Shown here piece by piece: positions 1-62,404 of a stretch of 64,000 nt of DNA. The notes under the pieces were generated by a model. That model was not told the DNA's origin and did no database searches. It was given only the letters and a program-made list of their open reading frames with translations. Origin of the DNA: a bacterium (GTDB taxonomy: Bacteria > UBA8248). The first letter of the stretch is position 1; every line of letters begins with the position of its first letter. A program made the translations under genes and the position numbers. The DNA lies in assembly GCA_965207065.1 (NCBI GenBank), contig OZ242260.1, positions 1,248,001-1,312,000 on the forward strand, in the 5' to 3' direction.

Positions 1-282
1 TAGGGAGAAATCCTGCGCCATTCGCGCCAGCGCCGGGTAGACCACCGCTTCGCCGTGGGGGTGATAGTTTCCGCTCACGTCGCCTGCTATCTTCGCGCAC
101 TTTCGAAACGGCCTGTTGTGCGCGAGGCCCAAATCATTCAGCGTTGTGAGGATGCGCCTTTGTACGGGCTTCAGTCCGTCGCGGACGTCGGGGAGCGCGC
201 GCGCGATGATGACGCTCATCGCGTAATCCATAAAGGACGCGCTCATCTCCTGCTCAATGCTGACCTCATTCAGGTTGTCCAT
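1..282 (-). CDS. gyrA: DNA gyrase subunit A, N-terminal part (runs off window)
   Basis: Manual translation from ATG at 282: [45 protein letters not shown]...[24 protein letters not shown]. Not in the ORF track. Confidence 0.95.
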
Positions 283-588
283 GCTATCGAATTTCTCCTG
301 CTGACGGCGCGAGTCAGAGGCCGTCCCAAAGGTGTGATGACCAGGCAGGGGCGAACCTAGGTGGGCGGAACGCAAACACTATCTTATACCACAAAAAGGG
401 TTGCGTCGGCAAACCAAAGCAACTACTTGCGCTGCTTTTCCGGAGGGCGCAAGCGCCCTTTTTTCAAGGGTTTCAGGACTTGCGTTTTACTCGCCCGCCA
501 GATTGCCCAAGAGGCTTCGTTCGTGGACAATAAGGCCACAACGCCTTAGTCAATTCCCGGTTTCTCCCTCTTGTCTTGGAGGAAAATC

Positions 589-1056
589 ATGCGGCCTCCC
601 GAGAGATTCAAGCCTTTCGTCTCATTCACTCGCCTTGTTGTGGCCATCATCTTTGCGGTGGCTTTGCTCACCTCCTCGGTAGCGGTGGAAAGTCACAAGG
701 ACGACCAAGAAGGGACTCACTCACCGGAAGTGGGGGACCTGATGGAAAAACTCGACGCGGATTTCGGCGCGCTTGTGAAGGCCGCCCTCATCGCCTCGGT
801 TCAGGAACTCGTGAGCGAGACGCCATATGCGGCCATCGAAAAACAGGCGGTGTCCATCGCCGCCACGGCGAAAGTCCTGCCGAACGTAGAAGAATTCCGA
901 GGGGATAATTCGATGCTCGTCCTCTCACGCCAACTCGAAGCCGCCGCCGATGGCCTTGCGAAGGCGGCAAGGAACAAAAACCTGGACGCGACCGTCAAGG
1001 CGCTGGTGGCAATACACGGCGCATGCGTACGCTGTCACGAGGACGCGCGCTTCTAG
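589..1056 (+). CDS. Exported class II (cytochrome c'-like) c-type cytochrome
   Basis: N-terminal hydrophobic signal/anchor, helical body, C-terminal CxxCH (ACVRCHEDARF). Start uncertain (571 or 589). Confidence 0.75.
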   Translation: MRPPERFKPFVSFTRLVVAIIFAVALLTSSVAVESHKDDQEGTHSPEVGDLMEKLDADFGALVKAALIASVQELVSETPYAAIEKQAVSIAATAKVLPNVEEFRGDNSMLVLSRQLEAAADGLAKAARNKNLDATVKALVAIHGACVRCHEDARF

Positions 1057-1100
1057 GTTTCGTGGGACCATCAGGCCTTCGCGCGCAGCGGGAGAGAGCG

Positions 1101-3608
<2,508 letters not shown>

Positions 3609-4724
3609 TCAATCTACCCTTTCAACCGTTGCGTCTCGAACCAGAAAAATTCTTCCGTCTATCTCATTTTCGTTTAACCGCGGCTCCTCGGTCGACGTGA
3701 TGAACGTCTGCGCTCCCAGGGAACCCAGGAACAACAACACCCTCTTTTTCCTGCCCGCGTCGAGCTCCGAGCCCAAATCATCGAGCAGCACGACGGGAGC
3801 TTCCTTTCTCCTTCTCTTGTATTCCTCAGCGTTCGCCGATACCAGCAATATCGTGATGAGACGCTGCTCTCCCTGGGAAGCGACCTCTTTCGCCCGGCGC
3901 CCGTCCCACGACAGGTGAAAATCATCGAGCTGCGGCCCCCAAAGCGTCGTCCTTCTCGCCATTTCCTCCTTTGCGAGTCTCTGCGCCGTCGCTCGCAAGC
4001 CCTCTCGTATTTCTCCTTCCGCGTCTTCGTCTCCACTCTGGAAACCCCTGGCTTCATACGAAACGGAAACCCTGGCTTCTCGCGTTTCTCCAAATAAATT
4101 CTCCAGGTGGTTCAGCCGGTTTTTCAGAGAATGTATATAACTTTTCCTGCGGACGATAATGCGGGCGGCCATCTCGATTAGTCGCTCTTGCCACACCTGA
4201 ATCATAGCAGATTCGCCCCCGTTTCTCAAAAGGTGATTCCTCTCGGAAAGCAGTTTCAAATACCCTCTGGAATCCTCGATATGCTGCGGTTCGACAGCCG
4301 CTATCGCTTGATCGAAAAACCGCCTTCTCGCTCCGGGGCCCTCCTTGATGACTTGAGGCGTTTCGGGGAAAAAAACGATAACGTGCGAACTATCGAGATA
4401 GGGCAGCAGGCCCCGCAGTTCCTGGCCATCTTTCTTGTATTTTCTCTCGCGTCCGTGGAACGCTGCTTCGAGCCTCGTTTCTTTCGCGCTCCCCTCATCG
4501 ATGAACACGCCGGACGCATACATTCCCTCGCCGCCGTGCAACACCATCTTCTCTCTTGATATCCGGCGGAAAGAACGAAGGTGTGAGAGATAATAAATGG
4601 CTTCCAGCAAGTTCGTCTTGCCCGATCCGTTGTTGCCGTAAATATAGTTAAATCCGGGGTGTGGCCTGATATCGAGTTTTGGATAGTTCCTGAAGTTTTT
4701 GAGAGTAAGTTTAGCGAGGCGCAA
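3609..4724 (-). CDS. recF: DNA replication/repair protein RecF
   Basis: NFRNY, Walker A GNNGSGKTNLLEAI, ASQGEQR, LLDDLGSELD; located between dnaA and gyrB. Confidence 0.95.
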   Translation of the reverse strand: MRLAKLTLKNFRNYPKLDIRPHPGFNYIYGNNGSGKTNLLEAIYYLSHLRSFRRISREKMVLHGGEGMYASGVFIDEGSAKETRLEAAFHGRERKYKKDGQELRGLLPYLDSSHVIVFFPETPQVIKEGPGARRRFFDQAIAAVEPQHIEDSRGYLKLLSERNHLLRNGGESAMIQVWQERLIEMAARIIVRRKSYIHSLKNRLNHLENLFGETREARVSVSYEARGFQSGDEDAEGEIREGLRATAQRLAKEEMARRTTLWGPQLDDFHLSWDGRRAKEVASQGEQRLITILLVSANAEEYKRRRKEAPVVLLDDLGSELDAGRKKRVLLFLGSLGAQTFITSTEEPRLNENEIDGRIFLVRDATVERVD

Positions 4725-4959
4725 AGGATATCCTCAGACACGGGTTCTTTTAAGACTATATAGATCATTTAAAAAGTAGTGGTAGTAGGAACGGTGATAT
4801 TGTGGATAACCTCGCAACGCATTCAAAAAAGAGTTCTTGTCCGGTCGGGAAGGTGTGCGGTAATTTGTGATTCGGGGCAGATAAACGGGAGTTCCCTCCC
4901 AGGACATGAAAAAGACAGGGAGTTCAACGGTTTTATCCACAATTGTTACCACGAGTGTT
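4725..4959. promoter_or_regulatory. oriC: Replication origin oriC (unwinding sub-region)
   Basis: AT-rich stretch 4748-4776, DnaA-trio-like TAG-TGG-TAG-TAG at 4777-4788, perfect DnaA boxes TGTGGATAA at 4801-4809 and TTATCCACA at 4933-4941. Confidence 0.85.
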
Positions 4960-6321
4960 TCAAGAGAGGTCTATTTTTTGTTCGAGCGCTTGGATGGTGG
5001 GAGGGAGGGACGGGTCTGTCTTGAGCAGGTTCTCGATTTTATTTGTGGAGTGGATAACCGTGGAGTGATCCTTGCCGCCGAAGCGACGGCCGATTTCCGT
5101 GGTCGAGGCGCGCGTGAGCTTCCTCGCGAGATACATGGCAATCTGGCGGGGGACCGCGAATGAGCGTGAGCGGTTTTTTGATTTCAGATCGGTGACCCGG
5201 ACCTGGAAGTGTTCGGCGACGATCTTCTGGATGTTGTCCACCGAAGAATTCCGGGAGGGGTCTCGAATAATGCCTCGCAACACTTCCTGTGCGACAGGAA
5301 GATCGATCTCCATGTCGTGCAAAGAGGCATGAATGCCGAGTCTTATAAGGCAACCCTCGAGTTCCCGGACGTTGGAGCGGACTTTCTCCGCGATGTAGTG
5401 GGCGACCTCCCTGGGGAGGGTAAGCCCCTGCTCATCAGCTTTTTCCTGCAGGATGGCGACCTTGGTCTCGAAATCCGGCGCGCCGATATCCGCTATCATC
5501 CCCGAGACGAAGCGCGACCTGAGGCGTTCCTCCAGCCCAGGCGTATCTTTGGGCATGTTGTCACTCGTAATGACGATCTGCTTTCTTGCATCCTGCAAGG
5601 CGTTGAAAGTGAAGAAAAACTCCTCCTGGGTGCGCTCCTTCCCGGCAATAAACTGGATGTCGTCTATCATCAGGATGTCCACTTTCCGGTATTTGCTCCT
5701 GAAAGCAGCCATCTGGTTCTGCCTGATTGAGGAAATGAGATCGTTGGTGAAACTTTCGGATGAGGTATAGAAGACGCGCGTCATCGGGAGTCGATCGAGA
5801 ACATGATGGGAGATGGCATGCATCAGGTGCGTCTTTCCGAGCCCCACCCCGCCGTAAATGAACAGAGGGTTGAGGGCAACTCCTTTGCCTTCCGCCAGGC
5901 GGAGGCTGCAGGCGTGGGCGAACTCGTTCGAACGACCGACCACAAAGTTCTCGAAACGGTACTTGGGATTGAGGAAATCCGGTCGCTTTACAAGAGGCTG
6001 GGATCTCTCCTTGAGAGCCCCGCCTTCTCCTGCCGGAACCACTCCGGCTGGGATATGCGATGGATTGGCCCCGTTGATCGGCAGATCGCTCGCTGATACG
6101 GTAAGTACGATGTTGGGCCCGGCTACCTGTTCAAGCACGTCCGTGATAATACCCCAATAGCGCGATCGCAAAGTGTTCGCCGTGAACGGATCAGGGACCT
6201 CAATCGCGAGTGTAGATTCGCTTGCATCGAGTTGTTTGATGCCCGCAAACCAGCGGGTGAACGTCTGGGGGGAGACTTCCTGTTTTATTTGGTCCGCGCA
6301 ACGATGCCAGAGAGTCGTCAT
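4960..6321 (-). CDS. dnaA: Chromosomal replication initiator DnaA
   Basis: LNPKYRFENFVVG, YGGVGLGKTHL, IDDIQF, NVRELEG, GGKDHSTVIH. Probable start MTTLW at 6321. Confidence 0.97.
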   Translation of the reverse strand: MTTLWHRCADQIKQEVSPQTFTRWFAGIKQLDASESTLAIEVPDPFTANTLRSRYWGIITDVLEQVAGPNIVLTVSASDLPINGANPSHIPAGVVPAGEGGALKERSQPLVKRPDFLNPKYRFENFVVGRSNEFAHACSLRLAEGKGVALNPLFIYGGVGLGKTHLMHAISHHVLDRLPMTRVFYTSSESFTNDLISSIRQNQMAAFRSKYRKVDILMIDDIQFIAGKERTQEEFFFTFNALQDARKQIVITSDNMPKDTPGLEERLRSRFVSGMIADIGAPDFETKVAILQEKADEQGLTLPREVAHYIAEKVRSNVRELEGCLIRLGIHASLHDMEIDLPVAQEVLRGIIRDPSRNSSVDNIQKIVAEHFQVRVTDLKSKNRSRSFAVPRQIAMYLARKLTRASTTEIGRRFGGKDHSTVIHSTNKIENLLKTDPSLPPTIQALEQKIDLS

Positions 6322-6384
6322 TTGGTAAACCAATTCATAACGTTCTTTGCGTGACGGGGCTCCCATCGCCACGAAAAAACATAG

Positions 6385-6464
6385 TTTTCCACAGGGCGAG
6401 ACAAGAGCCAATCAGATAAGGCATTTTTCCACAAACGGCTGGCAGGGGCAAGGGGTTTTCCACA
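6385..6464. promoter_or_regulatory. Cluster of three DnaA boxes upstream of dnaA
   Basis: TTTTCCACA (1 mismatch to TTATCCACA) at 6385-6393, 6425-6433 and 6456-6464, all in the same orientation. Confidence 0.8.
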
Positions 6465-6601
6465 AAAAATCGCAAGATCGCTTGTTTTTTGTTCTTTTTA
6501 TTGACGAAAACACGCAGCTTTTATAGGTTATGGGGCCGTACGCAAAGAGAATGCCTGGGCACCTGAACCCTTTGGATTCAGACGCTCCCTGCATGTGGTT
6601 C

Positions 6602-6630
6602 TTGACAATCATGGATTTGGTGGCTACTTT
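6602..6630 (+). promoter_or_regulatory. sigma70-type promoter of the rpmH operon
   Basis: TTGACA (6602-6607), 17-nt spacer, TACTTT (6625-6630). Confidence 0.65.
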
Positions 6631-6714
6631 ACGCTCGGCTTCTCGGGAAGCCTTTTCTATTGTTTATATGGCGGTTTGCGTATCCGGCCTTTGGGCCGGC
6701 AGATGGAGTCTTTG

Positions 6715-6855
6715 TTGAAAAGGACTTACCAGCCGAACAGAAGAAAACGGGTGAAGACACACGGGTTTCGTCGCCGGATGAAGACCACTGGCGGACGCGC
6801 GATCATCAGGCGCCGCCGGGTAAAGGGCCGAAAGCGTCTCGGCGTTTCCGCCTAA
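6715..6855 (+). CDS. rpmH: 50S ribosomal protein L34
   Basis: TTG start; (M)[23 protein letters not shown]. Confidence 0.97.
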
Positions 6856-6899
6856 GCGTCTCGCCGGGCTTGCCATTCCTCGACCGGAAGGGCGCAGGC

Positions 6900-7247
6900 A
6901 TGGACGTTAGCCTCCCGCCGGAGCGTCGAATCCGCAAAGGGAGCGAGTTCGCCGCCGTTCTCAGAAAAGGGCGCAAGCGCAGGTGTCCGTTATTCACGCT
7001 GTATATCCTGCCGGCTCCTTCGCGGGATCGCGCGCGGCTCGGCATTATCGCGTCACGCAGGGTGGGCGGCGCCGTTCAGAGAAATCGCGCCAAGCGGCTT
7101 CTCCGCGAAGTGTTTCGGCTTCATGGCTCTCAATTACCTGCGGGAGTGGACCTTGTGGCCGTGGCGAGGAACTCGATCGTCAGGGCGAGGCTAGAGGATG
7201 TTGAAAGGGCGTTCCGCAACGCTTTCCACGGAAAAACGAATTCCTGA
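6900..7247 (+). CDS. rnpA: Ribonuclease P protein component
   Basis: RLGIIASRRVGGAVQRNRAKRLLRE (RNR motif); follows rpmH. Confidence 0.95.
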   Translation: MDVSLPPERRIRKGSEFAAVLRKGRKRRCPLFTLYILPAPSRDRARLGIIASRRVGGAVQRNRAKRLLREVFRLHGSQLPAGVDLVAVARNSIVRARLEDVERAFRNAFHGKTNS

Positions 7248-7485
7248 AAGAGAGATTGCTCCCATCTCCCGGGCGATCTGTGTTCTGGCAACGGCTTTGA
7301 TTCGGGGGTATCAGCTCATTTTGTCTCCCGTGATGCCGGGCAGTTGCCGATTTTCACCCTCTTGTTCTTGTTATGCGCTCGAGGCGTTTCGGCGCCACGC
7401 TCCCGCGCGGGCCTTGTGGCTCACCGTGCGACGCATCGGGCGTTGCCATCCATTTCACCCCGGGGGAAACGATCCGGTTCCCTGA
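7198..7485 (+). CDS. yidD: Membrane protein insertion efficiency factor YidD
   Basis: YQLILSP, CRFSPSCS, RIGRCHPFHPGG. True start probably further downstream. Confidence 0.92.
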   Translation: MLKGRSATLSTEKRIPEREIAPISRAICVLATALIRGYQLILSPVMPGSCRFSPSCSCYALEAFRRHAPARALWLTVRRIGRCHPFHPGGNDPVP

Positions 7486-7511
7486 GGGGTCCGGCGGAGG
7501 CACTTTACATC

Positions 7512-9155
7512 ATGGAAAGAAACGCGATTATCGCCGCCGTATTATCGATGGCGATACTGATCGGCTGGCAATACCTCATCGTAAAGCCGATGGAGGACGA
7601 GCAGGCTCAGAAGGAGAAGGTGGCCAAGGCGCGCACGGCGGCCCGGAACAAGGAGCGATCGAGCGCCGCGAGCACGCCGCTCAAAGCGCCCGCCTCCGTC
7701 GCCGGCCAGCCGTCCGCACCCGCCGCTCCTTCTTCGCCGACGGCAGCCGCTCCCGGCCGGCGTGTTCGGGTGGACGTGGGCGACGCGGTGTATGAGCTGA
7801 CCAACCGGGGCGCGGGCTTCTTGTCCGCGCGTCTTCTGAAATACAAACAGGGCGAGAAGAACTTCGTCCAGCTCGTGCCCCCGGGCCGCCCGGACGTGCG
7901 GCCTCTTTATTTCTGGGGCGGCCAGACGGCGCAGAAGCTCAACGAGGCCTCCTACCAGGTCGAGGGCGGCGACCTCTCGCTCTCAAGGGCGAATCCGGAA
8001 GGAACGATTCGCTTCATCTACCGCGGCGCCGACGGCCTCTCGGCGGAAAAGGCGCTCACTTTCCGCCACAACGAATACAACATCCGCACGAAAATCAGCG
8101 TCACCCGGCCCTCCGGGACCGAGGCGATGGGAGTTGTCTGGGGCCCGCGTGTGGGCGGAAGCGACGGCAACACTTATGGCGGCGTCATCGAGGGGCCGAT
8201 GAGCTTCGTGGGCGATGAGCTCGAATATGACTATCCCGAGGAAGGAAAGTCCGTCACCCACGGGGAGAGCCTCAAGTGGACTTCGCTCCAGTCGAAGCAC
8301 TTCATCGCGGCCCTTATCCCCCGGGGCGGTGCGGGCGGAGCGGAGATTCGCCTCCTCTCCAAGACGGACGACCTCAGCGATTACGCCGCCATCGTGCCCT
8401 TCGCGCGCGGGAAGAACGTCGATGCGGACTTCGACGTCTACGTGGGGCCCAAGGCGTTGGCCCACCTCGAAAAGCTCAAGGTCAACCTCGAGGATTCCCT
8501 GGACTACGGGATGTTCTCGTTTATCGCCAAGCCGCTCATGTCGATTCTGAGGTTTTTTCACGCGTTCGTGGGCAACTGGGGGGTTGCCATCATCCTGCTG
8601 ACGATCGTGGTGAAGATTATCTTCTACCCTCTCACCCACGTCAGCATGCGCAACATGAAGGAGATGCAGAAGCTCCAGCCGCGCATCACGCAGCTGCGCG
8701 AGATTTACAAGGACGACAAGAACAGGCTCAACGAGCAGACCATGGCCTTATATAAGGAGCACAAGGTCAACCCGATGATGGGCTGCCTGCCGATGCTGAT
8801 ACAGATTCCCGTCTTCTTCGGGCTGTATGAAGCGCTCCTGGTGTCGATAGAGCTTCGCAACGCGCCCTTTTTCGGCTGGGTTCAGGACCTCTCGGTGCAG
8901 GACCCCTACCACGTGTATACGATACTCATGGGAGCGTCGATGTTCCTGCAGCAGAAGATGACGCCCACCGCGGGCGACCCCACCCAGGCGAAGATGATGA
9001 TGTTCATGCCCATCGTCTTCACGGGCATGTTCATCTTCTATCCCGTGCCCGTGGGGCTGGTGATCTACTGGCTCGTGAACAACCTGCTCTCCATCGCGCA
9101 GCAATTCTACGTGAACCGTTCCGTGCAGCCGCCCAAGCTGGCCGAGGAGAATTGA
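7512..9155 (+). CDS. yidC: Membrane protein insertase YidC
   Basis: GNWGVAIILLT, GCLPMLIQIPVF, IYWLVNN; synteny. Confidence 0.97.
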   Translation: MERNAIIAAVLSMAILIGWQYLIVKPMEDEQAQKEKVAKARTAARNKERSSAASTPLKAPASVAGQPSAPAAPSSPTAAAPGRRVRVDVGDAVYELTNRGAGFLSARLLKYKQGEKNFVQLVPPGRPDVRPLYFWGGQTAQKLNEASYQVEGGDLSLSRANPEGTIRFIYRGADGLSAEKALTFRHNEYNIRTKISVTRPSGTEAMGVVWGPRVGGSDGNTYGGVIEGPMSFVGDELEYDYPEEGKSVTHGESLKWTSLQSKHFIAALIPRGGAGGAEIRLLSKTDDLSDYAAIVPFARGKNVDADFDVYVGPKALAHLEKLKVNLEDSLDYGMFSFIAKPLMSILRFFHAFVGNWGVAIILLTIVVKIIFYPLTHVSMRNMKEMQKLQPRITQLREIYKDDKNRLNEQTMALYKEHKVNPMMGCLPMLIQIPVFFGLYEALLVSIELRNAPFFGWVQDLSVQDPYHVYTILMGASMFLQQKMTPTAGDPTQAKMMMFMPIVFTGMFIFYPVPVGLVIYWLVNNLLSIAQQFYVNRSVQPPKLAEEN

Positions 9156-11050: not shown

Positions 11051-11434
11051 ATGCGCTCGCAAGGGGGTATCCTTGTTCTGGCGGTTGCGCTCGCTCTGAT
11101 GCTCAACAACCTGTATTTCGCGGTCAGCCCCAAGGCGGCCAAAGGTGTTTTTCATTGGCTTGATGCAGCCGTCATCGCCGCGCTGGTTTTCGTTCTTGTC
11201 GCGAACATTCGCGGTTTGATGAGCAACGAAGCCGTATGGCACCGGGTCGTGGCGGCGATAGCGGCTGGTGTTCTGGTGAATTTTTACGCCTATAACTATC
11301 TGGCCAAGATGGCGGACAGCGGGCTGGAGAGCGGGACCCTGTGGCTGGTTCTGGTGCCTTTCACGGTTCCCATGCTCGCCTATGAGGGGTTTTTGATGAT
11401 TCGCACGTCCGGACGGGAGCGAGATGGAAAATAA
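11051..11434 (+). CDS. Small 4-TM membrane protein, unknown function
   Basis: RBS GGAGGG then ATG; four hydrophobic segments. Confidence 0.65.
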   Translation: MRSQGGILVLAVALALMLNNLYFAVSPKAAKGVFHWLDAAVIAALVFVLVANIRGLMSNEAVWHRVVAAIAAGVLVNFYAYNYLAKMADSGLESGTLWLVLVPFTVPMLAYEGFLMIRTSGRERDGK

Positions 11435-12185
11435 ATCCTCGATTCAAGGACACGTGGCGCTCGTCACGGCGGGTGCGGTGGGAATCGGCGAAGCGACCGC
11501 CGAGCGCTTGGCGTACGAGGGCGCGCGCGTCGCGCTGCTCGACCTCGACGAGGCGAAGGGCGAGGCCGCCGCGCGGCGGATACAAGCCGAGGGCGGGGAG
11601 GCGCGCTTCATCAATACAGACGCCACTTCGTCGAACGAGATCAAGGCGGCCGTGGAGGCGGCGCTCCACGCCTGGGGACGCATCGACATTCTCGTGAACT
11701 GCGCCGGCGGTTTCGTGGAGAATCCCGCCATCGAGGATCTGGACGAAGCGCAGTGGCGCCGCGTCGTGGACCTCAACCTGAAGAGCGTCTTCCTGTGCGC
11801 GCGCGCCGTTATGCCCTTTATGAAGAAAGCGCGCTACGGCCGCATCGTGAACATCGCCTCCCAGGCGGGCCGTGACGCCGTCGCGGAGACGGGCCTCGCC
11901 TACGGCGCGGCCAAAGCGGGCCTGTTCGGCTTTTGCAGGCGGCTGTCGGTCGAGGTGGCGCCCCACGGCGTCACCGTGAACACGGTGGCCCCGGGCGTGG
12001 TGCTCACCCCGAGGACGGCCGTGGTCCATAAGGACAGAATACCCGAGATAGTCGCGAAAATACCGGTGGGCCGCGTGGCGGACGCCGCGGACATCGCCGA
12101 CGCCGTATGGTTTCTCGCCAGACCCGAAGCGCGCTACGTTACGGGCGTGACGCTCGACGTCAACGGCGGCAGGTACGTCCACTAG
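11424..12185 (+). CDS. SDR family oxidoreductase (paralog 1)
   Basis: VTAGAVGIG, LVNCAG, NIAS, YGAAK. Confidence 0.92.
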   Translation: MENKSSIQGHVALVTAGAVGIGEATAERLAYEGARVALLDLDEAKGEAAARRIQAEGGEARFINTDATSSNEIKAAVEAALHAWGRIDILVNCAGGFVENPAIEDLDEAQWRRVVDLNLKSVFLCARAVMPFMKKARYGRIVNIASQAGRDAVAETGLAYGAAKAGLFGFCRRLSVEVAPHGVTVNTVAPGVVLTPRTAVVHKDRIPEIVAKIPVGRVADAADIADAVWFLARPEARYVTGVTLDVNGGRYVH

Positions 12186-12198
12186 AAAGGGAATTCAC

Positions 12199-12957
12199 GT
12201 GCATGAGCGATCCTCCATCAAAGACCACGTCGCCATCGTCACCGGCGCGACGGACGGCATCGGCCTGGCGACGGCGATACGCTTCGCGGACGAGGGCGCG
12301 AAGGTGGCCATCCTGGGGAGAGACCCCGAGCGGGGATCGGCGGCTCTGGCCCGGGTGAGTTCGCACGGCGAGGCTATTTACGTTCAGGGCGACGCCGCGC
12401 GGAAAGAGGACATCGACCTTCTTTTCGCTCGCGTGCTCGGCACCTGGGACCGCCTGGACATTCTGGTGAACTGCGCGGGCGGCTTCGTGGAAGTGTCCGA
12501 CATCGAGGACCTCGACGAGGCGGAGTGGGAGAAGATCGTGGACTGGAACCTCACGAGCTGCTACCTCGCCACACGGGCGGCGGCGGTCCCCATGAAGGAG
12601 CGCGGCTACGGCCGCATCGTGAACATATCCTCCATCTCCGCGCGCGACGCCCTGGCGAACGTATCGCTGGTGTACAGCGCCGCGAAATCCGCCATGCAGG
12701 GCTTCACGCGGCGGCTCGCGGTGGAGCTCGCCCCTCACGGCATCGCCGTGAACGCCGTGGCCCCCGGCGTAACGCTCACCAAACGCTTTCGCCTCATCCA
12801 CCAGGAACGCGTGCCGCAGATAGTGGCGAACCTGCCCGTGGGCTTCGGCGGGGAGCCGGAGGACATCGCCGACGCGATATGGTATTTCTCCACTCCCGGT
12901 TCAGGCTACGTCACGGGTGCGACCATTGACGTCAACGGCGGCCAATATGTGAACTGA
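12199..12957 (+). CDS. SDR family oxidoreductase (paralog 2)
   Basis: GTG start; TGATDGIG, LVNCAG, YSAAK. Confidence 0.92.
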   Translation: MHERSSIKDHVAIVTGATDGIGLATAIRFADEGAKVAILGRDPERGSAALARVSSHGEAIYVQGDAARKEDIDLLFARVLGTWDRLDILVNCAGGFVEVSDIEDLDEAEWEKIVDWNLTSCYLATRAAAVPMKERGYGRIVNISSISARDALANVSLVYSAAKSAMQGFTRRLAVELAPHGIAVNAVAPGVTLTKRFRLIHQERVPQIVANLPVGFGGEPEDIADAIWYFSTPGSGYVTGATIDVNGGQYVN

Positions 12958-13069
12958 CGGGCGCCTTCAATCATTTCGGTTCTGAACACCTGAAATTCCG
13001 ATATTTCGCGGATTCGTGGTATCATCTGAGGTCACGAGAGTTCCAAGCCGTCTAAACACCTGAGGAGCC

Positions 13070-13474
13070 ATGCAAATGCGATATCCCCTGCTTATGTTTG
13101 GTTTGGCCTTGCTCGCCGCCGTCCTGGTTTTGCCGCAGGCCGCGACCGCCCTGGAAGGGTGGAAGCCCTATGACGCCAAGGCGTTCGCCCAGGCCCAAAA
13201 GGATGGAAAGACGATTTTCGTAGCCGTCCACACCGACTGGTGAGGGACGTGCAGGCAGCAGGTGCCGCTGCTTCAGTCACTGGTTAAAGAGAAGGAATTC
13301 GCAACCGCCGCCGCGTTCGAGTTGGACTACGACGCCCAGCGCGATTTTGCGAAGGCGCTCGGCGTTCGCTGGCAATCGACGATCATCGTCTTCAAGGGCG
13401 CGCAGGAAAAAGGCCGCTCGACGGGCGACGTGGATATTGCGAGCATCCGGAGCCTCATGGAACGCGCGCTATAG
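13070..13474 (+). CDS. Exported thioredoxin-family selenoprotein (UxxC); in-frame TGA at 13241-13243
   Basis: RBS GAGGAG, ATG 13070, signal peptide, ...VAVHTDW-TGA-GTCRQQ...; frame continues through a thioredoxin fold (VRWQSTIIVFKG) to TAG 13474. Confidence 0.85.
13246..13278 (+). promoter_or_regulatory. Bacterial SECIS-like hairpin
   Basis: Stem AGGCAGC (13253-59) / GCTGCTT (13267-73) with loop AGGTGCC beginning 16 nt after the UGA; extended by TG/CA and GAC/GTC pairs. Confidence 0.7.
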
Positions 13475-13494: not shown

Positions 13495-13518
13495 AAGGGC
13501 CCGCTTCGGCGGGCCTTT
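13495..13518. terminator. Intrinsic terminator between convergent genes
   Basis: AAGGGCCCGC-TTCG-GCGGGCCTTT hairpin. Confidence 0.7.
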
Positions 13519-13523
13519 GCGTC

Positions 13524-21683: not shown

Positions 21684-23603
21684 TTGAAAGTCAAGTATGA
21701 CGTCATCGTCGTTGGCGGCGGACACGCCGGATGCGAGGCGGCCCTGGCAGCGGCGCGCATGGGCGCTCGGACCATGATGCTCACGATGAACCTGGACACG
21801 GTGGGCCTGATGTCGTGCAATCCGGCTATCGGCGGTCTGGCGAAGGGCGTCCTGGTGCGCGAGGTGGACGCTCTCGGAGGCGAGATGGCCCGCGCCATCG
21901 ACGCCACGGGCATCCAGTTCCGGATGCTCAACACGAAAAAAGGCCCAGCCGTGCAGGCCCTGCGCGCCCAGGCGGACAAGCAGCGCTACCGCGCGTATAT
22001 GAAAAACGCGGTCGAAAGCCAGGCGGGCCTCGATCTCAAGCAGGGGATGGTGCAAAAACTCCTGGTGAAAGACGGGGCGGTAGCGGGCCTTCAGGATCAT
22101 TTTGGCGTTACCTGGGAGGCCAAGGCTGTCGTTCTGACGCCGGGCACCTTCACGCGCGGGCTTCTCCACTATGGGGACAGGAAGGTGGAAGGCGGTCGTG
22201 CGGGCGAGGGTTCCGCGAACGAACTCACGAAGCAACTCGTTTCGTTCGGCTTCGCCATCGGCCGCATGAAGACGGGAACGCCGCCCCGGCTGGACGCGAA
22301 ATCCATTGATTTTCAAATACTTGACGTTCAGCCCGGCGACGAACCCCCGCTTCCGTTCTCATACCGCACAAAGGCCATCGAACAGGAGCAGATACCCTGC
22401 TGGATCACCTACACGAACCCGGCGACGCACGAGGTCATCCGGCAGAACATCGAGCGCGCACCCATGTACAACGGGCAGATCGACGCGATCGGCGTGCGCT
22501 ATTGCCCGAGTATCGAGGACAAGATCATGCGCTTCGAGGGCAAGCAGGAGCACCAGATATTCCTGGAGCCCGAGGGACGCGAGACTTGCGAGATCTACGT
22601 GAACGGGCTTTCCACCAGTCTGCCGGTGGACGTGCAAACCCGTATGTTAAGAACAATCAAAGGCTTGGAGAGAGCCGAGATGATGCGTCCGGGCTACGCC
22701 GTCGAGTACGACCACGTGGAGCCGACCGAACTCGGGCCGAGCCTGATGACGAAAAAGATGCCGGGGCTATTCCACGCCGGCCAGATCAACGGGACGACGG
22801 GTTATGAGGAGGCCGCCGCCCAGGGGATCATGGCTGGGATCAACGCCGTTCACTACCTGGGCGATAAGGAGCCTGTCGTATTGAGCCGTGAAGAGGCCTA
22901 CATCGGCGTTCTGGTGGACGATCTCATCACCAAGGGAACGGCCGAGCCTTACCGGATGTTCACCAGCCGGGCCGAGCACAGGCTCCTGCTCCGCCACGAC
23001 AACGCGGATTTCCGGCTGATGGAGCTCGGCCACAGGGTCGGTTCCCTGGATGAGGCCACCTGGCGCGCCTTTGAAGACAAGTCGAAACAGGCGAAAGAGG
23101 CCATCGCGTATCTCGAAACCACGACGGTGAACCCCAAACCGGACGTGCGGAGCGCGATGGAGACGGCGGGTTCCCGGCCGCTCAAGAAGCCGTCCGCACT
23201 TGCCGATATCCTGAGGCGCCCCGAGGCGGGGCCGGAACTGGCGATCCGGGTCGATTCCATTGATAAAGGCCGTTTCCGGGCGATTTGGGAGGCCCTGTGC
23301 CGCGAATCGCGGCGCTACGTGCTGGCGGAAGTGAAATACAAGGAGTATTTCGAGCGGGAATACCAGCAGGTTCACCACCTGAGGATGGCGGACCGGGTGA
23401 AGATACCCGAGAGCATCTCCTATTCAGACGTGGGCCACCTGACGGCGGAAGTAAGGCAGCGGCTCGAGCAGATACGCCCCAAAACCCTCGGACAGGCGAG
23501 CCGCATCTCGGGCGTGACGCCCGCCGCCGTCGCCGTGCTGGAGGTCTACATCCGCAAACAGAGCGGAAATTCGCGGGAGGAGGCCTCAGCGACTGTTTCG
23601 TGA
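21684..23603 (+). CDS. mnmG: tRNA uridine 5-carboxymethylaminomethyl modification enzyme MnmG
   Basis: [45 protein letters not shown]. Confidence 0.98.
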
Positions 23604-23678
23604 GCGTCGTCGTTTAAAAAAGCATTTCTCCCTGAGCGGGCATCGAAGAAATTCTCCCATTTTTGTCGATATTGCCCC

Positions 23679-23725
23679 GTAGGGACAGGTCGCGACCTCG
23701 GACAGGCACGGGGGCCTGTCCCTAC
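23679..23725. repeat. Composite GTAGGGACAGG REP-like palindrome
   Basis: GTAGGGACAGGTCGCGACCTCGGACAGGCACGGGGGCCTGTCCCTAC. Confidence 0.8.
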
Positions 23726-23768
23726 GAGAGCCCACCCCCCCCCCCCCCGCTTCGCCAAAATTCCTCAC

Positions 23769-23784
23769 TGTTCCACGTGGAACA
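23769..23784. promoter_or_regulatory. parS: parS centromere site
   Basis: TGTTCCACGTGGAACA perfect palindrome. Confidence 0.92.
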
Positions 23785-23811
23785 TTTTCTCCTCTTATTA
23801 GCCGAAAAATA

Positions 23812-23827
23812 TGTTTCACGTGAAACA
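23812..23827. promoter_or_regulatory. parS: parS centromere site
   Basis: TGTTTCACGTGAAACA consensus. Confidence 0.95.
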
Positions 23828-23904
23828 TCCGGTTGTATTTTCAGGTGTGGTGTGAGAATCTTTGTTTATCGGTAGCCATTTTCACCCGCCCTGAAACAGA
23901 ATAT

Positions 23905-24750
23905 ATGGAAATCACACCCGGAGCGACCATCTCCCCGAGCGTTCCCGAGGCCGGAGAAAATGCGGCCCCATGTACGGTCGTGGCCGTCGTGAACCAGAAA
24001 GGCGGCGTCGGCAAGACCACGACGGCCGTCAACCTGGCGGCCTGCCTCGCCGTGGCGGACCAGCCGACACTTCTGGTCGACATGGACCCGCAATCGAACG
24101 CGACGAGTAATTTCGGTATATTTTCGCCTTCGTCTTCTCTCTACCGGGCGCTCGTGCTGGGCGAGCCGGTAGACGAAAATTCCTTGTATAATACTGATAC
24201 TAAAGGCCTTAAGGTTTTTCCTTCCTCCATCGATCTAGCGGGAGCGGAGGTGGAGATCGCGGATTTGCCCCAAAGGGAAAGCCGTTTGCGGAACATTATC
24301 GAGCCGCTCCGGAGCCGGTTCCGCTACATCCTCATCGACTGCCCGCCCTCGCTGGGTTTTCTCACCTTGAACGGCCTGCGGGCGGCGGATGAGGTGCTCA
24401 TTCCCATTCAGGCGGAGTATTTTGCGCTCGAGGGGCTGGCCCGGCTGATGAAGACGGTGGAGCGGATACGCGGGAGCGTTCATCCGGGCTTGAAAATAGG
24501 CGGAATCCTGCTCACGATGTATGATTCGAGGACGAACCTTTCGCGTCAGGTGAGCGAGGACTTGCGCTCCCATCTGCCGGAGTTGACCTACCGGGTCGTG
24601 ATTCCCAGGAACGTGCGCCTCGCCGAGGCGCCGAGCCACGGGAAGCCGGTAATCACCTACGACATCTCCTCGCCGGGCGCACAGGCGTATCTCGCGCTGG
24701 CGAGCGAGTTCATCATGCGCTCGAAGGAAAGGATGAGAAACCAGATATGA
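23905..24750 (+). CDS. parA: Chromosome partitioning ATPase ParA/Soj
   Basis: NQKGGVGKTT, DMDPQSN, IDCPPSLG, IPRNVRLAEAPSHG. Confidence 0.96.
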   Translation: MEITPGATISPSVPEAGENAAPCTVVAVVNQKGGVGKTTTAVNLAACLAVADQPTLLVDMDPQSNATSNFGIFSPSSSLYRALVLGEPVDENSLYNTDTKGLKVFPSSIDLAGAEVEIADLPQRESRLRNIIEPLRSRFRYILIDCPPSLGFLTLNGLRAADEVLIPIQAEYFALEGLARLMKTVERIRGSVHPGLKIGGILLTMYDSRTNLSRQVSEDLRSHLPELTYRVVIPRNVRLAEAPSHGKPVITYDISSPGAQAYLALASEFIMRSKERMRNQI

Positions 24751-25673
24751 CGACCATTCGGAAAAAAGTGCTCGGACGCGGCCTGGACGCGCTCCTGGCC
24801 TCCCAGGACGCGCAAGACCCCGCGCCGGCGGTGCTGGACCCTCCGAGAACCACCGCTGAAGAAGCGGGGATTCTGATGCGGCTCTCTCCCGCCCGCCTCA
24901 CCCCCGGCGTTCACCAGCCGCGCGTTGATTTCGACGAGGAAGACCTGGCCGAACTGGCCGAATCCGTGAAGCGCCACGGAGTTATCCAGCCCCTTCTTAT
25001 CCGGCGTGCCGCGAGCGGGGGATACGAGATCGTTGCCGGGGAGCGGCGCTGGCGTGCCGCGCGGATGGCGGAAGTCGACGAGGTTCCCGCCATCCTCACC
25101 GACGCGGGGGGAGACGAAGCGCTCGAACTCGCCATCGTCGAGAACGTGCAGCGCGCCGACCTGAACCCCATGGAAGAGGCGGCCGCGTACGCGAGCATGA
25201 TGGAGCGCCTCGGCCTCACGCAGGAGCAAGTCGCCGCGCGCGTGGGCAAGGATCGCTCCACCGTAGCGAACTACATCCGCCTGCTCAATCTGCCACCCTC
25301 GGTTCAGGAGAGCGTGGCCGCTGAACTCCTCTCCATGGGGCATGCCAGGGCGCTCCTGTCCTTGCGTACGGATGAAGAAATGGAGGGCCATGCCAGGGCC
25401 GCTACAGAAAAAAGACTCTCCGTGCGCCAGCTGGAGATGCGCGTGAGAAAAGCGCTTGAGGGGAAAAATGAGGCGAAGGAAGCCTTCCGCCAACCCGCTC
25501 CGCAGAACGGGCCGTCGGGGCCGCAGGCGCTTTATCTACGCGAGGCGGCGGGGCGGCTCAGAAGCGCGCTGGGAACGAAAGTCGCAATTACAGGCGATGA
25601 GGAGAACGGAAAGATAGAAATAGAGTATTATACGAGAGAAACACTCGAGGGATTGCTCCAGCGGCTTTGTTAG
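24747..25673 (+). CDS. parB: Chromosome partitioning protein ParB/Spo0J
   Basis: LGRGLDAL, QPR, AGERRWRA, ENVQRADL, HTH. Confidence 0.96.
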   Translation: MTTIRKKVLGRGLDALLASQDAQDPAPAVLDPPRTTAEEAGILMRLSPARLTPGVHQPRVDFDEEDLAELAESVKRHGVIQPLLIRRAASGGYEIVAGERRWRAARMAEVDEVPAILTDAGGDEALELAIVENVQRADLNPMEEAAAYASMMERLGLTQEQVAARVGKDRSTVANYIRLLNLPPSVQESVAAELLSMGHARALLSLRTDEEMEGHARAATEKRLSVRQLEMRVRKALEGKNEAKEAFRQPAPQNGPSGPQALYLREAAGRLRSALGTKVAITGDEENGKIEIEYYTRETLEGLLQRLC

Positions 25674-26153: not shown

Positions 26154-26190
26154 GCGCCCGCTTCGGGACGGCTAAAGAAGGCGGCTGGAG

Positions 26191-26460
26191 ATGGCAAACG
26201 GTCGATCGGCTCTGGGAATTTTAGCAGGGTTTGTTTTCTGGTTGGGCATCGCATACTACTTCTACCAACGAGATTTTACGGGAGCGCTCTGGTTCGTCGC
26301 GGCCTTCGGTCTGATATACGGCGTCTATCGTTTGATCGCCCACCTGCTGGCCTCGAACCCGAAGCCCCGCCACATGCAGGATGAGGACGTCGACCCGCCG
26401 CCCCGCTCGGATCTGCCCGAGTATGATTTCAAAGACGTGGAACCGAAGGATTTCGAGTGA
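26191..26460 (+). CDS. Small 2-TM membrane protein
   Basis: RBS GGAG; two hydrophobic helices and an acidic tail. Confidence 0.6.
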   Translation: MANGRSALGILAGFVFWLGIAYYFYQRDFTGALWFVAAFGLIYGVYRLIAHLLASNPKPRHMQDEDVDPPPRSDLPEYDFKDVEPKDFE

Positions 26461-26490
26461 TGTTCCTCCCGAGAGACTTATAAGGCCCAT

Positions 26491-26865
26491 ATGTCCCAGT
26501 TCGTCATATACGCCCACAGCGGCGAGCCCGAGCGCATCCACCAGATAGCCACCCTGTCGGCGAGCGCCGCCGCGAACGGGGATGAGGCGCACGTGATCCT
26601 CTTCTTCGGTGCGCTCAGGCGATTCGTGGACGACGAGCTGGACTCATGCCTTCCGGCGGGAGAGGGAGCGCGCGGGGCGCATTCGGCGGAGGAACTCATC
26701 GAGTCCGCCAGAAGACTCGGCAAGCTCAAGATATACGCCTGCGCCGCGCAGCCCAAGCTCCTGGGCCTCGCGCCCGAGGACGTGGCGGACGTCGTGGACG
26801 AGGTAATCAGCCTCCCTGAGTTCATGCGGAAAACAAAAGGGGCGGAGACCAAGCTTTTCATTTAA
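26491..26865 (+). CDS. DsrE/DsrF-like family protein
   Basis: ASAAANGDEAHVILFF, KIYAC, C-terminal LFI pattern. Confidence 0.7.
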   Translation: MSQFVIYAHSGEPERIHQIATLSASAAANGDEAHVILFFGALRRFVDDELDSCLPAGEGARGAHSAEELIESARRLGKLKIYACAAQPKLLGLAPEDVADVVDEVISLPEFMRKTKGAETKLFI

Positions 26866-28375: not shown

Positions 28376-29155
28376 TCACGCGTCGCGCCATTCGGTTCTG
28401 GAGGGCAGCGAGCCGCCCCGGAAGTTGAACAAGGTGGCGGGAGCGTCGCTCGCGTTGTGCACGGTGTGCCAAGCGCCGCCGGGCGTATGGACGAGGTCGC
28501 CCACCGACGCCTCGATGGTCTCGTCTTCGATGATGATGTTCATGCGTCCTTCCAGAACGAGTGTTCCCTCGTCAATCGTTTCCTGGTGACGATGGACGTG
28601 CGGCCTCCCGCCGGGCGGGAAGGAGACGATCTGGCATTCCAGGAATTCGGTGGCGATGGCGCGCGTGAGACCCTTCTCCTTCACGGAGCCTGCGTCGAAC
28701 GGCCCCGTGAGCGAGGCGACGTCGCCCTTGATGTAGGGGACGGGAGGCGCCATGGGATTTTCCACCGACTCGGGATCGGGACTGGGGGGCGGATCGCCCG
28801 GCGGCATGAGGAAGCCCGAAGGCATCCGGCCGCCCCTGAAGTTGAACTCGATCAGCTCGTCGTTGCTTATGTTCTTCATGTTGTGCATCGCGCCGCGCGG
28901 GTTCAGGAGCACGTCGCCCTTCGAGACTTCGAACGTCTCCCCATTGTTGAGGATAAGCCCGCGCCCGTTATAGATGAGGTAGCCCTCGTCCATCTCTTCG
29001 TGATGCGCGTGATAGGGAGGGTAGGCGCCGGGCGGAAGGACGATGGCCCGCACTTCCAGGTTCGGCGTATTGATGAGGATGGGCGAGCCTTTCTCTCTCG
29101 CTTCTTCCTCGTCGTAGACCCATTTTACGTCTTCGATGTTTCCCACGTATGGCAT
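28376..29155 (-). CDS. Bicupin protein
   Basis: Two cupin repeats: HAHHEEMDEG...GAMH...FNFRGG and HRHQETIDEG...GAWH...FNFRGG. Confidence 0.85.
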   Translation of the reverse strand: MPYVGNIEDVKWVYDEEEAREKGSPILINTPNLEVRAIVLPPGAYPPYHAHHEEMDEGYLIYNGRGLILNNGETFEVSKGDVLLNPRGAMHNMKNISNDELIEFNFRGGRMPSGFLMPPGDPPPSPDPESVENPMAPPVPYIKGDVASLTGPFDAGSVKEKGLTRAIATEFLECQIVSFPPGGRPHVHRHQETIDEGTLVLEGRMNIIIEDETIEASVGDLVHTPGGAWHTVHNASDAPATLFNFRGGSLPSRTEWRDA

Positions 29156-29307
29156 AAGGACTCCAGATATTCGGTGGATGGATGAGAGAAAGGTATCCTC
29201 AGGCCTCGTGCGGGGTCAATGGCCAGGAGGCGTTGCGCAGCGCGCGGACGGGAGGCATGATAGGGCCTGGTTTGTCACGCGATCACTTTTTGTTCTGGAG
29301 ATACGGT

Positions 29308-59355: not shown

Positions 59356-60084
59356 TCAGGTCGCATGAACCCCTTGTAAAACCGGTTCGATATCGGCCAT
59401 GACGAATAGCCGTGGATAGGCGGATCGACCGTTTACCCTGAACACGCGGGCGTCCACGCTTCCGCTATTGAGCCACTCGCTAACCGTTTGAGCTTGCAGG
59501 CGGTTGATGTAGCCGAGCCGAACGCCGTCTTGTCGGGTTGCTTCTATCGCATGAGGGTCATACTCGTTGGTCGGGTCGTGTTGGAAAACCACGGGCTCGT
59601 CAACTTCCAAGTCGAGCGCATCATTTCGATAATGCCTGTAACCCGAGACGTCGAAAACGTATCGGAAAGGACGGTCGAAACCCTCGAAAGTCTCGGTGAC
59701 CCCGAAGCTGTCGCTGGTTAAGCGGGCGCCCGTATAGGCCAGCAGGCTGAGATCGGAGAAATCGGTTTGCGGCGAGAGGCCGAACGTCTCCATGAAGTCA
59801 TGGAAATCGGGCCGACCCCGGGGCGGGAGTCGTCGCGCCAGCACGTCAAGCGCGGTATCCGCCCCGTGCGCCTCGCCCAGCGCGAGGCCGGGATAGCCGC
59901 CGAATCCGGTCTTAAGGGCCAGGGCAAGATTGTCTTCATCCAGATACGAAAACGCCACGCCTTCTTCGCATTGCGCCAACTCGGCCACCGCGAACCTGTC
60001 GCGGGAACCGGGCTGCTCCAGAGGGCGTTGCCACGTCAAAATCGCCCGGCGCGTCTGTATGGGGTCAGTGATCAAATCCGTCAT
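59356..60084 (-). CDS. HIRAN domain-containing protein
   Basis: C-terminal VSGYRHY...DPTNEYDPHAI...LGYI; N-terminal LTWQ...RRLPPRGRPDF. Confidence 0.82.
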   Translation of the reverse strand: MTDLITDPIQTRRAILTWQRPLEQPGSRDRFAVAELAQCEEGVAFSYLDEDNLALALKTGFGGYPGLALGEAHGADTALDVLARRLPPRGRPDFHDFMETFGLSPQTDFSDLSLLAYTGARLTSDSFGVTETFEGFDRPFRYVFDVSGYRHYRNDALDLEVDEPVVFQHDPTNEYDPHAIEATRQDGVRLGYINRLQAQTVSEWLNSGSVDARVFRVNGRSAYPRLFVMADIEPVLQGVHAT

Positions 60085-60156
60085 TTTTGGGTCTCGCGAA
60101 GTATGTTTCTGATGCGTTGCGTACCAATTTCCAGAATAGCACAGATGTGGTGTGGA

Positions 60157-62319: not shown

Positions 62320-62404
62320 TATTTGAAAAACCTGCTTGTCAAACACCATGGGCGGGTTAGTGCATAGTTACAAAACCCCTAAACCACCTCAACCCCTAAC
62401 CCCC

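Follow-up and report, generated by a model that had tools for sequence, protein, structure and literature searches.

Is a thioredoxin gene dead when a stop codon stands exactly where its first redox-active cysteine should be, or is that stop read as something else? The question is raised by a plus-strand reading frame at 13070..13474 of the window (the whole 64,000-nt stretch of bacterial DNA that was analysed, to which all coordinates below refer unless another locus is named), which carries a TGA in frame at 13241..13243. We consider it very likely that this is a genuine gene for an exported, selenocysteine (Sec)-containing thioredoxin-like protein and that ordinary gene callers split it in two.

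Gene structure and fold across the in-frame TGA

Read from the ATG at 13070, the frame spans 134 codons, counting the U, and closes with a TAG at 13472-13474; the first-pass annotation had described it as open to 134 aa, and it is. The gene structure (13070..13474, TAG included) is established by this translation, by a Thioredoxin (PF00085) match and by full-length alignment with 32 Cys-containing homologs. These homologs, of 124-150 residues, came from a near-full-length protein search that also returned one 86-aa piece, the matches being 37-50% identical to the window protein. Codon 58 is the TGA, preceded directly by a Trp codon (TGG-TGA, 13238-13243), and the codon of the second Cys lies at 13250-13252; together they give the redox motif W57-U58-G59-T60-C61 (13238..13252, plus strand). 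W57, C58 and C61 are invariant among the 32 full-length homologs, and the TGA therefore falls, as had been proposed, exactly at the first Cys of WCxxC. Under translation table 11 two ORFs are called in place of the one: the first is 57 aa long (13070..13243) and the second 70 aa (13262..13474), the called start of the latter being a GTG (Val65; 13262..13264, plus strand) that lies inside the loop of the hairpin described below.

A Shine-Dalgarno-like GAGGAG box can be read directly from the sequence at 13062..13067 (plus strand). It lies 2 nt from the ATG at 13070 and 8 nt from another ATG, at 13076, in the same frame. The Met equivalent to 13076 is the start of 14/15 N-terminal fragments found in public protein sets, the lone exception being the window's own fragment. 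Because of the 8-nt spacing and these shared starts, the true start is probably ATG 13076, in which case Sec would be residue 56 of 132. The ribosome-binding site that the first-pass annotation had paired with ATG 13070 is thus present, but the start assigned to it is the less likely of the two.

Residues 1-27 (13070..13150, plus strand) form a probable Sec-type signal peptide, judged by eye from a basic start, a hydrophobic core and A-T-A before L28. Hydrophobic N-termini are also seen among the homologs in the alignment, and AlphaFold gives the leader (residues 1-30) pLDDT values of 53-57. At the other end of the gene, between the convergent trx and PGA_cap genes, direct reading finds a GC-rich hairpin with a short T run (13497..13519, no strand assigned), a possible, weak terminator for which a terminator scan made no call.

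The thioredoxin fold extends across the TGA, as had been claimed from the sequence: PF00085 matches residues 37-131, scoring 40.5 bits where the cut-off is 23.5 (E-value 2.9e-10). Given the family alignment, AlphaFold models residues 31-134 as a single thioredoxin domain at pLDDT 96-98, in the order beta-alpha-beta-alpha-beta-alpha-beta-beta-alpha, with U58 just ahead of helix 59-72, where the attacking cysteine sits. The best Foldseek match is PDB 5ZF2 (TM 0.93, target-normalised; rmsd 0.8 A; 30% identity), and thioredoxins fill the list of matches. The family profile finds 5ZPV and 5ZF2 at E-values of 4.9e-33 and 2e-32, respectively, and P0001 alone does so at 2e-13. On this sequence and model evidence, the protein belongs to the Trxlp-like exported thioredoxin family, with 5ZF2 as its closest solved relative. 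A canonical TrxA identity was considered and rejected, given a TIGR01068 score of 48.7 bits against a cut-off of 96.8 and Ser103 at the position of the conserved proline. Scores also stayed below threshold for PF13098 (23.9 against 27) and PF08534 (25.3 against 26.6) in Pfam, as well as for the NCBIfam selenoprotein models TsoB (NF045694; 20.7 bits against 805), WAxxUGC_long (NF041054; 12 against 300) and Trx7/PDZ (NF041199; 11.6 against 300).

Ser103 occupies the alignment column of the Pro that thioredoxin domains conserve, taken here to be the cis-proline, and S, A or G fills this column in all 33 rows of the alignment. In the window the site is Q102-S103-T104 (13376-13384); Ser, Ala or Gly in place of the pre-strand-4 proline is a family-wide trait, the solved Trxlp included. 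Thioredoxin families that lack this proline are unusual, and its absence might change the way in which mixed disulfides are resolved.

Codon 58 and the downstream frame in relatives

A genome scan with the homolog alignment, taking one genome per species, gave 80 loci in which the codon aligned with residue 58 was read via tblastn. This codon is TGC in 50 loci, TGT in 28 and TGA in 2. With Cys codons in 78/80 loci and TGA in the remaining two, the Cys/TGA pairing for which the first-pass annotation had looked to an alignment of homologs is established. The two TGA loci, L001 (55.6% identity) and L053 (55.8%), are the window's closest relatives among the 80, and the possibility raised earlier, that the TGA is unique to this assembly, falls away with the finding of the same codon in genes for proteins only ~56% identical. 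L001 comes from a MAG titled simply "bacterium" and carries the motif W-U-S-T-C; L053 comes from a Candidatus Tectomicrobia MAG, where the gene is cut at a contig edge. L002, from a Nitrospinota MAG and 50.7% identical, has a TGT codon and the motif W-C-S-T-C ("sister" and "clade," as applied to the TGA genes and L002, refer to identity ranks only). L001 is syntenic with the window over 11.6-16.7 kb, from the second of two short-chain dehydrogenase genes through the PGA_cap, GalT-like and OpuAC genes, and its flanking tblastx segments show 70-81% identity; synteny at this degree of divergence marks the gene as orthologous, in a genome that has plainly diverged.

The 76 codons that follow the TGA contain no gap and no stop in the window, L001, L053 or L002. 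For the pairs among the TGA genes, Nei-Gojobori dN/dS values over this stretch are 0.32/0.78, 0.41/1.35 and 0.34/1.04, a ratio of ~0.3-0.4, and the sequences thus indicate that purifying selection acts on the 76 codons downstream of the TGA. A frame that remains free of gaps and stops at dS near 1 is not what one would expect of an untranslated remnant, and the conservation of both the TGA and the frame behind it can be regarded as established. TGA is otherwise an ordinary stop in this DNA: it terminates 19/40 Pfam-supported genes in the window and is the commonest stop there. The genetic code has therefore not been reassigned across the genome, and read-through, if it occurs, has to be a local event.

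The public protein sets tell a similar story from the side of annotation. A second protein search, limited to shorter proteins, returned 33 matches that are 57-100% identical to the window, the window's own halves being two of them. The 15 N-terminal fragments (54-57 aa) all end at [D/E]-W right before codon 58, and 16 of the 18 C-terminal fragments begin at the GTG of Val65. Some of the fragments lie on contigs of 1.5-4.5 Mb (up to 4.48 Mb), and DNA-level confirmation that the shared stop is TGA comes from L001 and L053 only. No full-length relative more than 50% identical was present in the near-full-length protein search. The ending of 15/15 fragments at codon 58, taken with the lack of any close full-length form in that search, points to a stop that is fixed in the whole clade. 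The Sec reading of the in-frame UGA (13241..13243, plus strand) draws on these fragments as well as on the 80-locus codon comparison. The first-pass annotation had predicted that standard annotation would split the gene, and this is what has happened: the public proteins are fragments only, one of them bearing the name "hypothetical protein [Nitrospinae bacterium]."

A conserved hairpin and the reading of the UGA

A SECIS-like hairpin follows the UGA at 13253..13273 (plus strand), as judged from individual folds, an RNAalifold consensus and fixed-register energies. Folded by itself, the window sequence pairs 13253-13259 with 13267-13273 in its upper stem, around an apical loop of 7 nt (13260-13266); in the register conserved among relatives, 13254-13259 pairs with 13264-13269 around the loop AGGU (13260-13263). 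The predicted lower stem spans 13244-13281. Counted from the UGA, the apical loop begins after 16 nt, the upper stem after 9 nt and the predicted lower stem directly. An earlier description had a hairpin with a GGU-containing loop beginning 16 nt after the UGA; that distance is right for the loop, but the stem itself starts earlier.

Folded singly, the window hairpin does no better than chance against shuffled sequence (z of -1.18 over 66 nt and -0.40 over 45 nt); the corresponding single-sequence values are -2.59 for L001, -1.65 for L053 and -0.85 for L002. Because single-sequence significance is weak, the case for the hairpin rests on the comparison of registers. RNAalifold, applied to the three TGA genes and L002, finds a stem-loop with a 4-base AGGU/AGUU loop 16 nt after the UGA and one compensatory pair, C-G to A-U, in L002. 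When a fixed six-pair register was scored on the window and the 80 loci (81 sequences), ranks 1-4 went to L001 (-10.8 kcal/mol), L053 (-10.6), L002 (-9.5) and the window (-7.6), with the next sequence at -5.3. In this register the window has one A.C mismatch; its favoured fold is a stem displaced from that register, with seven pairs and a seven-base loop (-9.3 kcal/mol), and the MFE of its 45-nt folding segment is -15.2 kcal/mol. That a hairpin is conserved in register after codon 58 is thereby established.

Under the bSECIS model set out in a 2026 review, the apical loop measures 3-9 nt and has a G among its first two bases, most often with G or U next; the upper stem counts 4-16 bp, the loop lies 16-37 nt from the UGA and the MFE is -7.5 kcal/mol or lower (PMC13188914). 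The window hairpin lies within the constraints so quoted (loop of 4 or 7 nt, G at position 2, 7-bp stem, -9.3 kcal/mol), its UGA-loop spacing of 16 nt being the lower limit of the model. The hairpin sits in conserved coding sequence and has only four supporting sequences; constraint on the amino acids could therefore account for some of its conservation. Nor is it exclusive to the TGA genes, since the Cys-containing L002 has the same register. The L002 structure (L002 3166-3210) is a seven-pair hairpin with an AGUU loop and the compensatory A-U pair, and it may be the relic SECIS of a recent Sec-to-Cys change. Rfam returned nothing over the whole window at gathering thresholds; at permissive E-values, 13150-13400 gave five chance-level matches, which lend no support either way.

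None of selA, selB, selC and selD, and no tRNA-Sec, was found within the 64-kb window, where there is no tRNA of any kind. GyrB from the window shares 99% and 90% identity with "Nitrospinae bacterium" proteins and ~71% with Nitrospinota and Candidatus Tectomicrobia entries. Table 2 of BSepDB places three organisms labelled Nitrospinota, Nitrospinaceae or Nitrospinae (GTDB UBA8248) in the top ten for selenoprotein genes, with 48-54 each (PMC13326102); the link between the window and this selenoprotein-rich UBA8248 lineage is one of organism labels only.

A search for a second selenoprotein in the window yielded 200 TGA junctions with an open frame on both sides; in the 30 of these that were Pfam-scanned (stretches without a Pfam-supported gene), no domain extended across the TGA. 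At 26176-26862 (plus strand), two protein-like frames are joined in frame by a TGA at 26458 (E-TGA-C), the first encoding a small two-helix membrane-like protein and the second having its own ATG and no Pfam match. We take the stretch to be two neighbouring genes, a Sec reading at this TGA being the less likely one, and regard the minus-strand ORF at 26478-26858 as spurious. Two further observations concern other parts of the window. Flanked by the CN-hydrolase and NAD synthase genes, a spurious plus-strand ORF masks a shorter, two-domain cupin gene on the minus strand (28376-29170; Cupin_2, E 1.1e-27). At 59356-62349 (minus strand), a gene for a KAP-family P-loop NTPase adjoins a HIRAN-domain gene; its GC3 is 0.42, against 0.7-0.9 for most neighbours, and composition suggests that the KAP NTPase/HIRAN stretch is an acquired island.

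Several other accounts of the thioredoxin locus have to be weighed against decoding of the UGA as Sec. A single substitution, TGC or TGT to TGA, is all that a pseudogene or an assembly error would require in a gene whose homologous loci have Cys codons in 78/80 cases, and the window, in which no Sec machinery was seen, would suit a dead gene. Such a gene would hardly, however, have the same TGA in both L001 and L053, or be matched by relatives whose N-terminal fragments stop there in 15/15 cases with no close full-length Cys form found, or retain 76 downstream codons without stops or indels at dS of ~0.8-1.35 and dN/dS of 0.3-0.4, and we give this account next to no credence. The TGA could instead be a true stop that separates two products, a secreted peptide of 55-57 residues and a cytoplasmic protein of 70 residues from GTG 13262. 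Table 11 gene calling and the public protein sets look just like this, and the window, L053 and L001 all have GTG or TTG as codon 65; but neither half is a folding unit, both the Pfam domain and the high-confidence model span the break, and the codons between the TGA and GTG 13262, that of the second Cys included, are conserved, all of which makes two separate proteins highly improbable.

The remaining account accepts the full-length product and changes only the amino acid: a near-cognate tRNA for Trp or Cys, or local recoding of another sort, would carry translation through the UGA and give a W-W/C-G-T-C thioredoxin. No Sec machinery was seen in the window, after all, and a hairpin could stimulate other kinds of read-through. 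The recoded site, though, is the nucleophilic Cys of a CxxC motif, and Cys and Sec at that site make up the classic Cys/Sec pair. The hairpin, moreover, fits the bSECIS constraints, TGA terminates 19/40 window genes, and organisms with the same labels are reported, in the BSepDB table, to be rich in selenoproteins (PMC13326102). We consider read-through without Sec unlikely, with a small chance of being correct.

Decoding as Sec is the reading that we prefer. The UGA at 13241-13243 would be read as selenocysteine, the hairpin at 13253-13273 recruiting SelB with its Sec-tRNA(Sec); the signal peptide would then carry the product of ~132-134 residues across the inner membrane, where the mature domain of ~107 residues would serve as a thiol-disulfide oxidoreductase. 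Sec58, at the N-terminus of helix 2, would attack and would cycle with Cys61 via a selenenylsulfide bond. Periplasmic reductant is the likeliest role for the family; the direction of electron flow, the donor and the substrate are inferred. The recoding proposed in the first pass thus finds support in the Cys/TGA pairing, the recurrent TGA, the purifying selection and the in-register hairpin, and we hold with considerable confidence that SelB and Sec-tRNA(Sec), drawn in by the hairpin, insert Sec at the UGA to give an exported Sec58/Cys61 periplasmic reductant, both Sec insertion and export being inferences.

Neighbourhood and comparison with known systems

A gene of ~240 aa lies ~19 nt 3' of trx, on the same strand, in 41/80 family loci, and its DsbD_TM/CcdA identity was confirmed by Pfam for the four downstream genes tested; carriers of this ccdA-type gene are L003, L005, L011, L070 and 37 other loci. 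No ccdA/DsbD_TM gene stands beside trx in the window, L001, L002 or L053. The ccdA-type neighbours of the Cys members make it most likely that the family serves as a periplasmic reductant in a trans-membrane electron pathway; with that neighbour lost, the Sec enzyme may draw its electrons from, or act on, a different partner. Directly upstream of the window gene (11424-12957) are tandem short-chain dehydrogenase paralogs, the second of which is ~79% identical in L001. The chromosomal origin region occupies 1-9155 and 21684-25673, with gyrA (cut at the window edge), gyrB, recF, dnaA, rnpA and yidC, then mnmG, parA and parB. Three GyrB matches agree with trx fragments in the length of their longest contig (17072, 2970891 and 2145923), which points to a gene order preserved among relatives.

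From these comparisons, we read the gene as the Sec form of the Trxlp-like exported subfamily, present in the searched public protein sets as fragments only. This amounts to an annotation correction: a conserved envelope redox enzyme has been invisible across a lineage, known there only as orphan fragments of 55-57 and 70 residues. UxxC thioredoxin-fold selenoproteins are the commonest predicted kind of selenoprotein. Real as it is, the finding is nothing out of the ordinary for this field, and it leaves the understanding of selenoprotein function unchanged.

A Sec-containing thioredoxin (Trx, PF00085, UxxC) is listed among the experimentally supported prokaryotic selenoproteins (PMC13188914). 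The window protein shares with it the PF00085 fold and a UxxC motif with the attacking Sec at its N-terminal position, and in both a SECIS hairpin follows the UGA directly. The window protein differs in that it scores below the TIGR01068 cut-off, has a hydrophobic leader, is Trxlp-like and lacks the cis-proline. The same review also catalogues predicted exported selenoproteins with a thioredoxin fold: the PF13098 thiol:disulfide interchange, DsbG-like and DsbA-like proteins, the UGC-containing TlpA family and Redoxin PF08534 (PMC13188914). These, too, are thiol-disulfide oxidoreductases of the envelope with Sec in the redox motif, most of them recognised computationally, but they belong to other Pfam/NCBIfam families, and for PF13098 and PF08534 the window protein scores below threshold.

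The CcdA-linked periplasmic thioredoxins, the Cys-containing majority from Alpha- and Betaproteobacteria, are homologous over their full length, 38-51% identical, and alike in leader and motif position. Theirs is a Cys, mostly in WCPTC, with DsbD_TM downstream in 41/80 loci, whereas the Sec clade has no adjacent ccdA and carries W-U-[GS]-T-C. It is possible, though on balance doubtful, that we are dealing with an uncatalogued Sec form that is lineage-wide, fixed in the Nitrospinae-labelled clade (as defined by identity ranks) and its Tectomicrobia-labelled relatives, with a relic SECIS in L002 and a partner other than that of the rest of the family. If true, a natural Cys/Sec pair would be available in a family whose structure has been solved, and the L002 hairpin would make a small case study of Sec/Cys exchange.

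That structure is Trxlp (TRX3) of Edwardsiella piscicida (5ZF2, 5ZPV), which has a WCxxC motif and disulfide-reductase activity and which its authors describe as an effector that is delivered to the host cell and binds ASK1 (PMC6636751). Trxlp and the window protein have in common the sequence family and fold, a WCxxC-type motif and a Ser in place of the cis-Pro. They differ in the residue that attacks, Cys in Trxlp and, by our reading, Sec in the window protein, for which nothing suggests an effector role. A Cys/Sec pair within the 5ZF2 family would be useful for asking what selenium brings to a periplasmic thiol-disulfide oxidoreductase.
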